Assembly (NCBI GenBank): GCA_902608305.1
Contig: CACLNK010000001.1
Span: forward strand, 12,244 to 76,243
DNA: 64,000 nucleotides
DNA from: an uncultured Pelagibacteraceae bacterium
Lineage (GTDB): Bacteria; Pseudomonadota; Alphaproteobacteria; Pelagibacterales; Pelagibacteraceae
Direction: 5' to 3'
In this document: in pieces, positions 42,953 to 54,258 of the stretch
Layout of the letters: each line of letters opens with the position of its first letter
Numbering within the stretch: the first letter of the stretch is position 1
Notes under the pieces: generated by a model
Databases searched by the model: none
Seen by the model: only the letters and a program-made list of their open reading frames with translations
Told to the model about the DNA's origin: nothing
Position numbers and translations under genes: made by a program

Positions 42953-43348
42953 ATGAAACTAACAGTCCCATTTTACTTACATAAAGCAGGTGCGGGTTTC
43001 CCCTCTCCTGCTACAGATTACATAGAAGAAGACGTTGATCTAAATATTCATCTAATCAAAAATGTTCCTGCAACTTTTATTATTAGGGTTCAAGGAAAAT
43101 CAATGATGGAAGTTGGGATCTACGATGGAGATTTATTGGTTGTTGATAAAAGCCTTAAACCAAAAAATTTTTCTACTGTGGTTGCGAATGTTCACGATGA
43201 ACTTGTAGTAAAAAACTTTGTTAAAGAAAAAGACGAACAATTTCTTACCTCTAGTTCAAAAAAAATTGAAGATAAAATTATTATAAATAACGATTCAGAA
43301 ATTTTTATTTGGGGAGTTGTCACTTATGTCATCCACTCAGTATACTAA
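42953..43348 (+). CDS. umuD: DNA polymerase V subunit UmuD (S24 peptidase)
   Basis: AGFPSPA cleavage region, GKSM Ser, DGDLLVVD, VVK Lys, IWGVV. Confidence 0.93.
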   Translation: MKLTVPFYLHKAGAGFPSPATDYIEEDVDLNIHLIKNVPATFIIRVQGKSMMEVGIYDGDLLVVDKSLKPKNFSTVVANVHDELVVKNFVKEKDEQFLTSSSKKIEDKIIINNDSEIFIWGVVTYVIHSVY

Positions 43349-44606
43349 AAAAATAGCATTAATTGATTGCAATTCTTTCTACGTCTCTTGCGAAAGATTA
43401 TTTAATCCCAAAATCCGAAATAAACCTGTTGTTGTCTTATCAAGTAATGATGGTTGTATAATTTCAAGGTCTAATGAGGCAAAGACTCTTGGTATTAAAA
43501 TGGGTGATCCCTACTTTAAAGCTAAAGATATAATACTTAAAAATAACGTTCATGTATTTTCTTCAAATTATTCTTTGTACGGAGATCTTTCTAGAAGAGT
43601 CATGAGAACTTTAAAACGTTTTAACTCTGAAATAGAAATTTACTCTATAGATGAAGCTTTTTTAGATTTAACTAATTTTCCTGATGATGAAGTAGAAGAT
43701 GTGGGAAAAGAAATTAGAAGCATCGTATTACAATGGACAGGAATACCCACTAGTATTGGAATTGCAAAAACTAAAACTCTAAGTAAAATTGCCAATCATA
43801 TTGCAAAGAAAACAAAGTCTGGCATTGTAAGTTTAATAGGCATTAAAGATATTGATCCTATATTAAAAAAGGTAGAAATTAATGATGTTTGGGGAGTTGG
43901 TAAACAACTTACAAAGTTTTTTGTTCAAAATGGAATTCATAATGCCAAACAATTAAAAAATATATCTAATACTTGGATAAAAAAAAGTTCCAATGTTTTA
44001 AGTTCTAGAACTGCTATGGAGCTTAGAGGTATTTCGTGTATAGCTTTGGAAACTCAAAATTCAAAAAGAAAAAGTTGTGTGGTCTCAAGATCATTCGCAA
44101 AAAAAGTAGAAAAACTTCAAGAACTACAAGAGTCAATCACAAGCTATTGCTTAAATGCTGCAGAAAAAATTAGATCAGAATCTTTAATTGCAAAATCAAT
44201 AACAATATTTATTAGAACTAGTCCTTTTCAAAATCAATTTGCTTATTATTCAAATTCTAAAACTATAGATTTACCAATAGCAACAGACAATAGTATTGAG
44301 ATAGTTAAAACTGCACTAACTGGATTAAAAGATATTTTTAAAAATGGATATAGATATCAAAAAGCTGGAATAATGTTATCAGGTTTGTCTAGTTCGCAAG
44401 GAAGTAAAAATTTATTTTCTTCTATCAAAGATGTTAAAATTAAAAACCTAATGAAGTCCATAGATAATACTAATTATAGATTTGGTCGATCAACTTTAAG
44501 TTTGGCTAGTGCTGGAATAAATAAAAAATGGAACATAAAAAGACAATACTCGTCAAAAATTGATACTGCTGATTTTAATTTTTTACCAACGATAAAAGCT
44601 ATTTAA
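43326..44606 (+). CDS. umuC: DNA polymerase V subunit UmuC (Y family)
   Basis: DCNSFYVSCE, SNDGC, YSIDEAF, VWGVG, SRSF, YQKAG. Confidence 0.95.
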   Translation: MSSTQYTKKIALIDCNSFYVSCERLFNPKIRNKPVVVLSSNDGCIISRSNEAKTLGIKMGDPYFKAKDIILKNNVHVFSSNYSLYGDLSRRVMRTLKRFNSEIEIYSIDEAFLDLTNFPDDEVEDVGKEIRSIVLQWTGIPTSIGIAKTKTLSKIANHIAKKTKSGIVSLIGIKDIDPILKKVEINDVWGVGKQLTKFFVQNGIHNAKQLKNISNTWIKKSSNVLSSRTAMELRGISCIALETQNSKRKSCVVSRSFAKKVEKLQELQESITSYCLNAAEKIRSESLIAKSITIFIRTSPFQNQFAYYSNSKTIDLPIATDNSIEIVKTALTGLKDIFKNGYRYQKAGIMLSGLSSSQGSKNLFSSIKDVKIKNLMKSIDNTNYRFGRSTLSLASAGINKKWNIKRQYSSKIDTADFNFLPTIKAI

Positions 44607-48907: not shown

Positions 48908-49324
48908 ATGGCAAAAATTTCCAAAACATATATCCCAAATTTAAAAGAAAAATATATGTGTGAAAAACACAAATTATTTTTTAAAAAAAAACTTATTGAA
49001 TGGAAAACTGAGATTGTAAGATCTAATAATGAAGCTTTATATAATAGCTCATTAGATGATAATAGCGCTTCTGCTGATATTGTGGATCAAGCAAGTTCAT
49101 ACACAGAAAAAAATGTTGAGATGAAAGCAATAAATAGACAAATCAAACTTATTTCTAAAATTGATCAAGCTATAAAAAAAATTGAAAATGGAACATATGG
49201 TTTTTGTGCAGAAACAGGAGAACCAATAGGAATTAAAAGGCTTATAGCAAGACCTGTTGCCACGCTATGCATAGCGGCTCAAGAAAAACATGAGAAGGAA
49301 GAAAAAGTTTACGCTGACTTTTAA
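48908..49324 (+). CDS. dksA: RNA polymerase-binding factor DksA
   Basis: Coiled coil with ADIVDQA tip, YGFCAETGEPIG, RLIARPVATLC. Confidence 0.93.
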   Translation: MAKISKTYIPNLKEKYMCEKHKLFFKKKLIEWKTEIVRSNNEALYNSSLDDNSASADIVDQASSYTEKNVEMKAINRQIKLISKIDQAIKKIENGTYGFCAETGEPIGIKRLIARPVATLCIAAQEKHEKEEKVYADF

Positions 49325-49968
49325 GGTTTAGGTATAATTTCTCCTCTATTCATAAAATCATATCCTTTAATAACAGCGTCTCTTTTTGAAATTTCTAAAT
49401 ACCATCTAGTCAAATTCTTATAATTATTAATCCCAATATCATGCCAATCATGTCTTGCAATCCATGGAAAAGTTGCAACGTCAGCAATTGAGTAATTATC
49501 TCCTGCTAGATATTTTGATTGCTCTAATCTTTCATCTAAATCACCATATATAGTTTTGGTTATTCTAAAGTATCTTTCCTCCCCCCATTTATCCTTTCCA
49601 GAATTGTAACGATGAAATTGATGGTGTTGTCCTAGCATTGGGCCAACGTAAGCCATTTGAGCCATTAACCACTGGTTAATTTTTGTTCTATCTTTTTGTT
49701 CATAAAATTTATTACTTTTTTCTCCAAGATATATAAGGATAGCTCCAGATTCAAAAACAGCTTCTTTATTATTTTCATGATCAATAATTACTGGAATTTT
49801 ACTAAAAGGACTAATTTTTCTAAATTCAGGATTAAATTGTTCACCCTTTGAAAATTCTCCTCCAGGATTAATATTTATTTTGGTAACTTTGTATTTAAAA
49901 CCAATTTCTTCAAGCATAATTGAAATTTTTTTACCATTTGGAGTATCTGCTGTTAAAAGTTCTATCAC
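49321..49968 (-). CDS. Glutathione S-transferase (YfcG/YghU-like)
   Basis: TPNGKK, KIPVI, FESGAILIYL, YSIADVA. Confidence 0.92.
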   Translation of the reverse strand: MIELLTADTPNGKKISIMLEEIGFKYKVTKININPGGEFSKGEQFNPEFRKISPFSKIPVIIDHENNKEAVFESGAILIYLGEKSNKFYEQKDRTKINQWLMAQMAYVGPMLGQHHQFHRYNSGKDKWGEERYFRITKTIYGDLDERLEQSKYLAGDNYSIADVATFPWIARHDWHDIGINNYKNLTRWYLEISKRDAVIKGYDFMNRGEIIPKP

Positions 49969-50980
49969 TTTTTAACGCCTAATCTTTCATGAACGCTCTT
50001 AGAAGTTGTTGAAAATTCAAACCTTAAGTTTTCATCTGGTCTTGCATATTTAAAACAACCTCTTGCAGCTAGTGCACCTTCATGAAAGCCAGAAAGAATT
50101 AATTTTAATTTACCAGAGTAAGTACATATATCTCCTATAGCAAATATTCCTTTATGATTTGTTTCAAAGTTTTCTGTATTAACCGGAATGTGCTTTTTAT
50201 TTAAATTTAATCCCCAATTAGCAATTGGTCCAAGCTTCATAATTAATCCAAAAAAACCTAAAAGGTAATCTGTTTCTATTTTTTGGATACTTTCATCTTC
50301 ATGTTTAATTTTAATACTTTTAATTTTTTGATCACCTTCAACTGAATTTAATTGATATTTTGTAAATAATTCAATTTTGCCTTCTTTGCTTAATGTTTTA
50401 ACTTTATCAACGCTTGCTTGCGATCCTCTAAATTCGTCTCTTCTATGTATTAATTTAACTTTAGAGTTAGCTGATAATTCAATTGCCCAGTCTAAAGCTG
50501 AATCTCCACCTCCAAATATCGAAACTCTCTTGTCTTTAAAGATACTTTTGTCTTTAACAGAATATAAAATTTCTTTTTCTTCAAATTTTTCACATTCTTT
50601 TACTAAAAATTTTCTTGGTTCAAAAGAACCTACTCCACCTGCAATAATAATATTTGGTGCTTTAAATTCTTTTCCTTTTTTAGTTTTAATTAACCAATTA
50701 TTTTTATCTTTTTTTATTTCTTCGACCCTGTCGCTTAAATGAAAATTAGTTTTAAAAGGTTTTATTTGTTTAATTAAATTATTAGTTAATTCCTCACCTG
50801 TACATACTGGTATCGCTGGAATATCGTAAATAGGTTTGTCGGGATAAAGCTCTATGCATTGTCCTCCTATTTTATCTAAGTTATCAACAACTTCACATTT
50901 TAATCCAATAATACCAAGTTGGTGAACACAAAAGAGGCCTGTGGGTCCTGCTCCTATAACTAAAACATCTGTATCAATCA

Positions 50981-50981
<1 letters not shown>
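49965..50981 (-). CDS. Thioredoxin-reductase-fold ferredoxin--NADP+ reductase
   Basis: GAGPTG, GGQCIELYPDKPIYDIP, GGGDSALDW, HRRDEFR, AIGD; no CxxC. Confidence 0.9.
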
Positions 50982-51352
<371 letters not shown>

Positions 51353-51373: not shown

Positions 51374-52144
51374 TTATTTAGATCTTGTGTTCGTACTTTG
51401 CATTGCAGCAACCCAGATAACTAAACCAAATGCGATTTTATTAACAAAGTCTGCTAAGTTATAAATCATGTTTAAAGAGTTGTCATCTACACTACCAATT
51501 ATGTAGCCAAATACATAGCCTAGTGGGTATATACACCAGCCAACGGTAACAATCATTCTTAAAATACCAAAAGCAGTTACAAAAATTTTATTTCCACTTT
51601 TTGCCGCTGCTTTGCCAGCTTCACCAGAAAAGATTTCATATAAAACAAAAATCCATCCACCAATACTGATTGCTAAACCAAGAACTGGTTTGATGTGTCC
51701 TGTTTCTCCTGCATAAGCTCCACCTACCATCACAAGTGATCCAATTAAAAGCCTCCAAAATATTCTATTTGAAATTTTTCTGACTATTGCCAAGATTAAA
51801 TAAAACTCAACCATCTGCAGTGGCATAGTGATAAACCAATCAATATATCTATACACAGTTGGTGAATCTGCTGTTTGAACCCAAGCACCTCTCATATACA
51901 TGTAGTTTATAAATGCAATACCAGTGATTAAACCAGCTACAGTTACTGGTGTTCTCCATGCGACAGCTACTGAGTTTCTTTCAAAGAAAAAAAACGCCGT
52001 GGCAGCTAACATGCCCATTGAAATCACCCAAAACGTAATTCCAACAAAATCATCAGGAGCTAATATAGCTTCATTTGCATTTGCTGCTCTCGATAATCCT
52101 ACAAAAGCTACAAGAATAAAAGCAAAAAACTTTAATTTACCCAT
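51374..52144 (-). CDS. Proteorhodopsin (DTE, Gln spectral tuning = blue type), His75-to-Asn variant
   Basis: Signal peptide plus 7 TM; RYIDWFITMPLQMVE; NLADFVNK retinal Lys236; GIAFINY where GIAFxHY is expected. Confidence 0.95.
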   Translation of the reverse strand: MGKLKFFAFILVAFVGLSRAANANEAILAPDDFVGITFWVISMGMLAATAFFFFERNSVAVAWRTPVTVAGLITGIAFINYMYMRGAWVQTADSPTVYRYIDWFITMPLQMVEFYLILAIVRKISNRIFWRLLIGSLVMVGGAYAGETGHIKPVLGLAISIGGWIFVLYEIFSGEAGKAAAKSGNKIFVTAFGILRMIVTVGWCIYPLGYVFGYIIGSVDDNSLNMIYNLADFVNKIAFGLVIWVAAMQSTNTRSK

Positions 52145-52359: not shown

Positions 52360-54258
52360 ATGAATAACAAATTTAATGAAATTTATTCAAATTCAATTAA
52401 AAATCCTGATGAATTTTGGAAAAAAGTATCAGATGACATGTTTTGGTTTAAGAAACCAACAAAAATATTAAATAAATCCAACCCTCCTTTTTATAAATGG
52501 TATGAAGATGGAGTTACAAACACTTGCTACAATGCATTAGATGTTCATATTGACAAAGGTCGAGGCGACAGAACTGCTTTAATATATGATAGCCCCATAA
52601 CAGATAACAAAAGTAAATTTACATATAAAGAGTTAAGAGAAAAAGTTTCAAAGTTTGCGGGTGGATTAAAAAATCAAGGTATAAATAAAGGAGACAGAGT
52701 CATAGTTTATATGCCTATGATTCCTGAAGCTGTTATTGCTATGCTTGCATGTGCAAGAATAGGTGCGATCCATTCTGTAGTATTTGGGGGTTTTGCTTCA
52801 AATGAATTAGCTAATAGAATCGATGATAGTAAAGCCAAAATTTTAATCACCGCTTCTTGTGGTTTTGAGCCAGGAAGAACTGTTGAATATAAGCCTCTTG
52901 TTGACGAAGCTTTGAAGTTAGCTTCACACAAAATTGATAAACTTATTTTATTTCAAAGACCAGGTCATGAAGTAAAACTTAAATCACCAAAAGAAATAAA
53001 CTGGGAAGAATCATTGTCTAATGCAAAAAATGTTGATTGTGTTGAAATGAATTCAAACGAATTTGCTTATATTTTATATACTTCAGGTACAACTGGCCTA
53101 CCAAAAGGAATTGTTAGAGACATTGGGGGTCATATTGCAGCTCTTAAATGGACAATGAAAAATATTTACAATATTGATGAAAACGATGTTTGGTGGTCTG
53201 CAAGTGATATTGGCTGGATTGTAGGTCACTCTTATATTGTGTATGCTCCACTATTTAAAGGGTGCACAACCGTTTTGTTTGAAGGAAAACCTGTTGGAAC
53301 TCCAGATGCAGGCGTTTTTTGGAAAGTTATTTCAGATTATAAAGTTAAATCTCTTTTTACGGCCCCAACAGCTTTTAGAGCAATTAAAAAAGAAGACCCT
53401 GAAGGTAAATTTTTTTCAAAATATGATTTGAGTTCATTTGAATCTTTATTTTTGGCAGGTGAAAGAGCTGATCCCGATACAATTAAATGGGCTGAAAAAT
53501 TATTGAAAGTTCCAGTTATTGATCATTGGTGGCAAACCGAAACGAGTTGGGCAATCAGTTCTAATTGTACAGGAATAGAAATGCAAAAAACTAAATATGG
53601 CTCAGCATGTAAAGCTGTTCCAGGTTATGATGTTAAAGTTATAAAACCAGATCAATCTTTAGCAAAACCAAATGAAATGGGAGATATTGTTGTTAAACTC
53701 CCTCTTCCTCCAGGAACTTTTCCAACACTTTGGAATGCTGATCAAAGATATAAAGAAACTTATATGTCGAATTATCCTGGCTATTATCAAACTTATGATG
53801 CAGGGCATATTGATGATGATGGTTACGTTTGGATTATGTCTAGAACAGATGACATCATTAATGTTGCCGGACATAGGCTTTCAACTGGTGCAATTGAAGA
53901 AGTATTGTCTGAACATCAATCTGTTGCAGAATGTGCAGTCATTGGTATTGCAGATAAGTTAAAAGGTCAATTACCGATGGGCTTGCTAACACTTAAGTCT
54001 GGAGTTAAAAAAAGCAACGAAACTATATCTAAAGAATGCATTCAAATGGTCAGAGAAAAGGTTGGGCCTGTTGCTTCATTTAAAACCGCTATCGTTATAA
54101 AAAGACTACCTAAAACAAGATCAGGCAAAATATTAAGAGGAACAGTTAGAAAAATTGCAGATAATGAGTCTTATAAAATGCCTGCAACTATTGATGATCC
54201 TGCAATTTTAGATGAAATTAAAGCTGATTTAAAAAAACACAGTATTTTAAAATTTTAA
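52360..54258 (+). CDS. prpE: Propionate/acetate--CoA ligase
   Basis: HSVVFGGF, YTSGTTGLPKG, SDIGW, DHWWQTE, PKTRSGKILR. Confidence 0.88.
   Translation: MNNKFNEIYSNSIKNPDEFWKKVSDDMFWFKKPTKILNKSNPPFYKWYEDGVTNTCYNALDVHIDKGRGDRTALIYDSPITDNKSKFTYKELREKVSKFAGGLKNQGINKGDRVIVYMPMIPEAVIAMLACARIGAIHSVVFGGFASNELANRIDDSKAKILITASCGFEPGRTVEYKPLVDEALKLASHKIDKLILFQRPGHEVKLKSPKEINWEESLSNAKNVDCVEMNSNEFAYILYTSGTTGLPKGIVRDIGGHIAALKWTMKNIYNIDENDVWWSASDIGWIVGHSYIVYAPLFKGCTTVLFEGKPVGTPDAGVFWKVISDYKVKSLFTAPTAFRAIKKEDPEGKFFSKYDLSSFESLFLAGERADPDTIKWAEKLLKVPVIDHWWQTETSWAISSNCTGIEMQKTKYGSACKAVPGYDVKVIKPDQSLAKPNEMGDIVVKLPLPPGTFPTLWNADQRYKETYMSNYPGYYQTYDAGHIDDDGYVWIMSRTDDIINVAGHRLSTGAIEEVLSEHQSVAECAVIGIADKLKGQLPMGLLTLKSGVKKSNETISKECIQMVREKVGPVASFKTAIVIKRLPKTRSGKILRGTVRKIADNESYKMPATIDDPAILDEIKADLKKHSILKF

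Follow-up and report, generated by a model that had tools for sequence, protein, structure and literature searches.

Can a proteorhodopsin (PR) that has lost the histidine partner of its proton acceptor still pump protons, and what kind of cell would retain it? The question is raised by a gene in a 64,000-nucleotide window (the whole stretch of DNA analysed here) from an uncultured Pelagibacteraceae bacterium, which has asparagine at the position of His75 in GPR. The role of deep-ocean proteorhodopsins is itself described as an open question (Olson 2018, PMC5864233; Hays and Fuchsman 2025, PMC12598773). Surveys sort PRs by residues 97, 101, 105 and 108, so that a protein of this kind is counted as an ordinary blue pump. 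Asn75 sequences are already in print; the feature itself appears undescribed. The terms histidine, His, H75 and pKa are absent from the main text of Olson 2018 (PMC5864233), and the available main text of Hays and Fuchsman 2025 (PMC12598773) has neither histidine nor His75 and no residue-level description. None of the papers listed by full-text literature searches reports a naturally occurring Asn75 in SAR11; these searches cover subscription journals poorly, so an earlier mention is possible.

The gene and its locus

The gene (51374..52144, minus strand) encodes 256 amino acids with the motif DTE-Q and a hydrophobic, signal-like stretch at the N-terminus. The product matches PF01036 with 144.5 bits and possesses both the type-1 rhodopsin domain and the Schiff-base lysine, Lys236; NCBIfam assigns it to no family. 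GPR numbers are the protein positions minus five (the convention of Olson 2018). The helix C core of Arg99, Asp102, Thr106, Gln110 and Glu113 (51806..51850, minus strand) is intact, as are Asp232 and Lys236 (51437..51451, minus strand). These residues, together with Trp39, Pro66, Met107, Ala143, Leu157 and Ser160, were each verified as the earlier note had listed them. The equivalents of the DTE pump residues Asp97, Thr101 and Glu108, with Arg94 and Asp227, are all present, and the nearest relatives retain DTE. An AlphaFold model of the protein has a pLDDT of 58, too poor for structural use.

A propionate/acetate-CoA ligase in divergent orientation (52360..54258, plus strand) is the conserved upstream neighbour, and ferredoxin, thioredoxin-reductase-like, GST-like and dksA genes (48908..51301, no strand assigned) are the usual downstream neighbours. 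The order acyl-CoA ligase, proteorhodopsin, ferredoxin/reductase is identical in all nine loci compared at the level of nearest neighbours, and the gene is therefore placed as a normal SAR11 proteorhodopsin. Neither a transducer nor a flotillin gene is found among its neighbours. In a tree the protein falls among SAR11 PRs, separate from the FArhodopsins; it is about 70-78% identical to His75 SAR11 proteins, and its closest match among 400 sampled Pelagibacteraceae genomes is no closer than 73%. A promoter scan gave no excess over shuffles. The gene is present in contigs of four DNA and four RNA runs, a contig-level count of presence only.

The host (G000) belongs to the Pelagibacteraceae by its relatives; its genome is 62% complete and its 16S is 97.2-97.4% identical to those of two complete genomes of the same genus. 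Two further features were noted. A gene pair at 42953-44606 of the window is presumably umuD-umuC-like, encoding an error-prone polymerase; we assign it from motifs that we take to be characteristic. A heme-copper oxidase subunit on another contig (G000:C41) is about 40% identical to the versions in G126, G023 and G285 and 75% to that of G019, and by these identities is a different oxidase type from the former three.

Asparagine at position 75

The codon AAC (51905..51907, minus strand) places Asn80 at the His75 position, as the earlier note had read it; translation and alignment to the blue PR structures 4JQ6 and 4KLY confirm the assignment. In that alignment Asn80, Pro66, Met107, Ala143, Leu157 and Ser160 face His, Ser, Val, Gly, Phe and Gly, respectively. 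The codons of Met107 (V102; 51824..51826), Ala143 (G138; 51716..51718), Leu157 (F152; 51674..51676) and Ser160 (G155; 51665..51667) all lie on the minus strand. With Asn80 in place of His75, the protein stands outside the canonical His-Asp DTE proteorhodopsin pumps.

The substitutions mark a clade, as had been proposed. Of the 119 matches kept from the first search, 38 (the query counted in) reach 80% identity, and 37 of these have Asn at position 80; of the 81 below 80%, seven have Asn and the other 74 His. One tandem record of 376 residues with a partly duplicated rhodopsin (P0016), probably a misassembly, was excluded from the counts. In a 293-member cluster Asn is present in all 13 full-length sequences among the 15 members listed, the other two being fragments. 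Within the subclade of 36 proteins defined by Met107, Leu157 and Ser160 (each 36/36 by definition), Asn80 is likewise present in 36 of 36 and Ala143 in 31, the remainder having Thr. The earlier note needs one correction, for Pro66, which is found in 25 of the 36 and is not fixed. A sequencing or assembly error at 51907 is practically inconceivable and was ruled out: AAC does differ from CAC by one base, and His predominates in the loosely matched contigs of four RNA runs (other SAR11 genes included), but Asn is encoded by both AAC and AAT in independent assemblies and is present in all the full-length members listed for that cluster, and the site is spanned by a 174-nt contig from an RNA run that differs at one other letter.

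Asparagine is the usual natural alternative to His75, to judge from three tallies. The alignment of both queries' matches has 123 Asn and one Thr against 110 His; six motifs searched in the Station ALOHA catalogue gave 54 Asn and two Tyr with no Gln, Arg or Asp; and distant representatives at 50% identity that cover the site have His in 82 of 107, Asn in 18 and another residue or a gap in seven. This preference does not distinguish tolerance from selection. Five distant PR-like DTE proteins (P0240, P0242, P0245, P0248 and P0251; 45-52% identity) also have Asn75, with long N-terminal extensions, and are possibly eukaryotic.

Recurrence and depth

An exact-pattern scan of GTDB species genomes, which may miss variants, found five further Asn75 genes, with the motifs DTQ-Q, GTS-Q, DTL-Q, ETM-Q and DTE-L. 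Forcing the Asn75 proteins to be monophyletic on the PR tree (37 chosen rows, LG+G4, seven trait columns removed) was rejected with a p-AU of 2e-5, or 1.9e-4 when one nested row was left out; a single origin is rejected on this tree. Starred branches of a host tree built from flanking genes (42 loci) force six changes at position 75, a minimum, and those of a quick 66-row PR tree only two. The direction of change is set by the outgroups, which carry His. Some of the changes could stem from recombination, whether of entire genes or of parts. A short recombined tract around codon 80 gave no signal in third-position identity, a comparison of low power (0.615 for Asn-Asn, 0.632 for Asn-His and 0.648 for His-His pairs). 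Asn75 is, as far as these sequences go, recurrent and present in several deep-water lineages.

Some of these genes differ in other ways. One (L035 / L043, genome G402) has the motif GTS-Q, in which Gly takes the place of the acceptor and Ser that of the donor, together with Trp155. Three green-type genes (DTE-L; L038, L088 and L090) show near-zero synonymous change and a mutual dN of 0.012-0.031 across the three sequences. A sister clade (P0029, P0034, P0037-P0039, P0120 and L070) has Asn75 and an intact DTE-Q with Trp at G138; this Trp would likely block the site of the retinal ring, which makes the clade a good candidate for an opsin without retinal.

The earlier note had suggested a low-light lineage, and depth labels bear this out. 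Supplementary file 3 of Olson 2018 (PMC5864233) lists 1510 representatives from Station ALOHA: 260, 281, 149, 293, 415, 85 and 27 at 25, 75, 125, 200, 500, 770 and 1000 m. All 54 with an Asn motif (37 AFINY, 17 AFVNY) come from 200-1000 m, with three at 200 m, 40 at 500 m, nine at 770 m and two at 1000 m; neither motif occurs among the 690 representatives from 25-125 m. The His counterparts number 289 and 139; depths were read for 22 of the former. AFINY is commoner than AFIHY at 770 m, by eight to six, assuming that the file is grouped by depth, and a sequence that by eye is a very close relative of our protein carries the 770 m label. The tally is of one station and counts representative labels, not abundances, with many partial sequences and related rows. 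Three Asn75 single-cell genomes belong to a set described as epipelagic (PMC10308929), and Asn75 cells are therefore not restricted to dark water.

Retinal supply

The stretch between atpF and ispH is about 4.3 kb long in three relatives whose genomes are complete or nearly so, and crtI-crtB-crtY-blh occupies it. In the host atpF and ispH are adjacent with a gap of 54 nt (G000:C3:51140-51195), the operon is missing there, and none of the four genes has a match elsewhere in the 62% complete genome. The junction is also empty in G401, G402, G404 and G405, that of G404 retaining 33 codons that match the end of blh; the operon is thus missing at all five assembled Asn75 junctions, the host included, while G403 is without that contig. 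By comparison, blh was found in 327 of the 400 sampled family genomes and in 163 of the 173 of high quality, but in none of five Asn75 genomes, one of which is also among the 400. Seven high-quality His75 genomes lack blh, and since ispH is likewise missing or cut in them the absence is attributed to an assembly gap; at the five Asn75 junctions, which are assembled across, a gap is ruled out.

Operon loss was rejected as a sufficient cause of Asn75. The junction is without the operon in four genomes of genus g9; three of them have the gene, and these keep His75, with Met102 and Trp155 and, in two, a Gln donor. At locus level in this genus (L119, L120, L123 and L124) His75, Met102 and Trp155 occur with Gln at the donor in three, R94K in two and one in-frame TGA, and the operon is lost at the junction where assembled. 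In another genome (G149, L143) the PR gene directly precedes a short blh-like remnant and then ispH, where related g4 genomes retain crtY-blh.

In bulk data crtY and blh are reported as nearly undetectable at depth (Olson 2018, PMC5864233). An RPE65-type oxygenase was not found in the 62% complete host genome. Photolyase was found in none of four incomplete Asn75 genomes and in the single control, a weak contrast. A bacterium without known retinal genes is reported to make a functional rhodopsin (PMC7734400).

The host has a second rhodopsin gene (G000:C4:12142-12837; L049 1501-3699), with the motif DTT-T, no signal stretch and His75 kept, followed by a Band-7/flotillin gene; by its sequence it is a FArhodopsin. 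A FArhodopsin is carried by four of six Asn75 genomes (the host and three of the five others), against seven of the 400 sampled, G223 being one of the seven; the tallies include G223 and G068, on which none of the conclusions depends.

Constraint on the protein

Relaxed selection, one of two alternatives offered in the earlier note, is borne out by the dN/dS values. Nei-Gojobori pairs with the signal region excluded (pairs that share branches, the Asn75 DNA being mostly metagenomic) gave a pooled dN/dS at dS 0.03-0.35 of 0.21 for 38 Asn75 pairs against 0.054 for 27 His75 pairs. For neighbouring genes the values are 0.116 (35 pairs) and 0.048 (13 pairs), and six genome-only Asn75 pairs have 0.22-0.29 for the rhodopsin against 0.07-0.08 for its neighbours. 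The Asn75 values are two to four times those of His75 genes, yet remain well under 1 even as dS approaches 1. Selection on the Asn75 genes appears relaxed but purifying.

The His set has 135 fixed sites. In the Asn set 74 of these are still fixed (at least 99%), and Trp34, Glu50, Arg94, Trp98, Trp159, Trp197, Tyr200, Pro201, Asp227, Asn230 and Lys231 are present in all 123 Asn75 proteins. Glu108, in contrast, is lost in 82 of the 123, a sample biased toward the clade of the second query, against one of 110 His75 proteins. The pattern is that of a retinal core held under constraint with the residues of the proton path loosened. Together with Trp at 138 or 155 in sister clades, the loss of Glu108 points to a wider trend away from pumping.

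The retinal pocket

Several co-substitutions had been placed near retinal, and the alignment with PsFAR upholds this: Met107, Ala143 and Ser160 fall opposite its residues 84 (a blocker of the polyene site), 120 and 137 (both at the beta-ionone site). In PsFAR His84 and Glu120 are reported to occupy the retinal site, with Trp at 137 in another subgroup; only the double revertant binds retinal, either native blocker alone preventing binding (bioRxiv 10.1101/2025.04.29.651185). In sister lineages position 143 or 160 is occupied by Trp (G138W in six and G155W in one of the 123 Asn75 proteins, and more among loci). Residue 77 of our protein is Ala, as in PRs; Ser of the FArhodopsin type is found there in only one of the 123. 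Leu157, which we take to correspond to Gly156 of xanthorhodopsin, may lie at the carotenoid window. At that position, where carotenoid-antenna rhodopsins usually have Gly, Leu is reported to leave an opening in archaeal clade B (PMC12137139). Met107, Ala143, Leu157 and Ser160 probably reshape the pocket rather than close it.

Function

The His-Asp pair is reported, second-hand, to lift the pKa of the PR acceptor by some 0.8-2.2 units, and the laboratory mutant H75N to speed the photoreaction and cycle (PMC6656774); the PR pKa is tabulated as 7.5 (PMC8292405). The pair is termed "fully conserved" in a 2025 paper, which links it to shut-off at low pH and reports that His-to-Met rescues pumping there (PMC12002130). 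The Trp34-His75 contact has been described (PMC4374980) and modelled as a pH throttle (2026 preprint). Olson 2018 tested 20 proteins in E. coli, of which one from deep water, a DTQ-Q protein from 770 m, pumped (PMC5864233). Its catalogue sequence has AFINY and Met102; the ETM-Q, ETL-Q and ETV-Q proteins, which gave no signal, also have Asn75, and the backbone of the DTE-Q control has His. These readings assume that construct and catalogue entry are the same. Asn75 with Met102 is thus compatible with pumping; since the DTQ-Q protein keeps Gly138, Phe152 and Gly155, it provides no test of the pocket formed by Ala143, Leu157 and Ser160.

The published effects of the pair and the pumping relative together make a blue pump without the His-Asp pH gate the best reading. 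We give about an even chance to the full proposal, namely that such a pump, under relaxed selection and dependent on outside retinal, serves a deep-water Pelagibacter lineage. The protein would likely still bind retinal, scavenged from outside or obtained by another route, and pump protons outward under blue light. As in the laboratory mutants, Asn75 would uncouple Asp97 from the His gate that turns pumps off at lower pH, and the pKa of Asp97 is predicted to be lower and less sensitive to pH. Dim water would make the gate dispensable, Asn being the one replacement that the structure commonly accepts. Subsurface water is less alkaline, for which reason Asn75 may even be mildly favoured. The gain in energy at 500-1000 m would probably be very small. 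The break-even is quoted as about 50 umol photons, a level that light beneath the euphotic zone does not approach (PMC12598773). A functionally shifted rhodopsin and relaxed selection, posed as alternatives in the earlier note, are accordingly not exclusive, and each holds in part.

The main rival to the pump reading is a blind or near-blind opsin, its pocket filling in at the FArhodopsin positions for want of a retinal supply and its role in the membrane independent of light; we regard this as unlikely, though it deserves serious attention. Three substitutions at PsFAR blocker positions, where one native blocker suffices, the Trp residues of the sister proteins, the empty operon junctions and the frequency of FArhodopsins in Asn75 genomes all speak for it. 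But Met, Ala and Ser are far smaller than the His/Phe, Glu/Gln and Trp of the FArhodopsins, there is no variation in the lysine, counterions, donor or aromatic cage, Ser77 is all but missing, and the Asn75/Met102 relative pumped.

A bolder proposal, which we hold to be doubtful, is that mesopelagic SAR11 repeatedly and under selection made a His-less PR for scavenged retinal, in which Asn75 would keep Asp97 deprotonated in deep water of lower alkalinity and the Ala143/Leu157/Ser160 pocket would load retinal from the membrane. If true, it would define a class of pumps peculiar to depth and make visible an evolutionary path from pump to a retinal-less state, which the FArhodopsins would have reached separately.

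Slow decay, by which a gene of dwindling use in dark water drifts toward loss, Asn75 and the pocket changes being tolerated along the way with no new function, seems to us decidedly unlikely. It would explain the raised dN/dS, within genome-only pairs as well, the mixture of degenerate motifs (GTS, ETM, ETL and DTL), the stop codon that interrupts one related gene of the deep type and the many deep SAR11 reported without the gene (PMC12598773). It fits poorly with a dN/dS far below 1, the 74 fixed sites, a replacement that is almost exclusively Asn and a large subclade fixed for its changes; the rise in dN/dS is, moreover, partly common to neighbouring genes.

Very unlikely is a light sensor whose slow cycle reports dim or bioluminescent blue light. 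Gln110 blue tuning, the retained retinal core and the fact that related Asn75 clades have often lost the donor would suit it, and a sensor role has been proposed for deep PRs (Olson 2018, PMC5864233). In place of the features of haloarchaeal SR and Proteo-SR, though, we find a carboxylic donor, Glu113, and no adjacent Htr-like transducer; a search for MCP domains found none in three incomplete genomes. These observations, with the faster cycle reported for laboratory H75N (PMC6656774), count against the slow or sensory cycle entertained in the earlier note.

Comparison with known systems

Position 75, taken with 102, 138 and 155, supplies a new marker, one that follows depth and the loss of retinal synthesis. 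The closest known proteins are the blue DTE-Q PRs (Med12, 4JQ6; HOT75, 4KLY/4KNF; surface SAR11), which have the same locus and fold family and share Arg94, Asp97, Thr101, Gln105, Glu108, Asp227, Lys231 and Trp34. Our protein differs from them in Asn for His75, V102M, G138A, F152L, G155S and a higher dN/dS, and its host lacks crtIBY-blh at the usual site.

The deep SAR11 DTQ-Q protein (HOT229_2_0770m_rep_c426637_1, PMC5864233) resembles it in Asn75, Met102, Gln105 and deep-water origin, but has Gln at the donor site and keeps Gly138, Phe152 and Gly155. The laboratory mutants GPR H75N and Gloeobacter H87M are altered at the same position, with a lower acceptor pKa and faster cycle reported; they are engineered single changes, whereas Asn75 in SAR11 is natural, recurrent and accompanied by pocket co-substitutions. 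Deep blue PR groups 1 and 4 (Hays and Fuchsman 2025, PMC12598773) are described as deep-specific SAR11 clades absent from the surface, a depth pattern resembling that of the Asn75 clades, to which they may correspond.

FArhodopsins (PMC10308929; bioRxiv 10.1101/2025.04.29.651185) are likewise reported from deep or lower-photic SAR11 and have altered pocket positions 84, 120 and 137, PsFAR also being without the His. They are nevertheless a separate paralog beside flotillin, with an aromatic blocker and no donor, and the host's own copy on contig C4 is 41% identical to the Asn75 protein. The latter has no adjacent flotillin, a non-aromatic Met107 at the position of residue 84 and Ala77 in place of Ser54; it keeps the usual PR locus and the motif DTE, not the DTT, DTL or DNI of the FArhodopsins.
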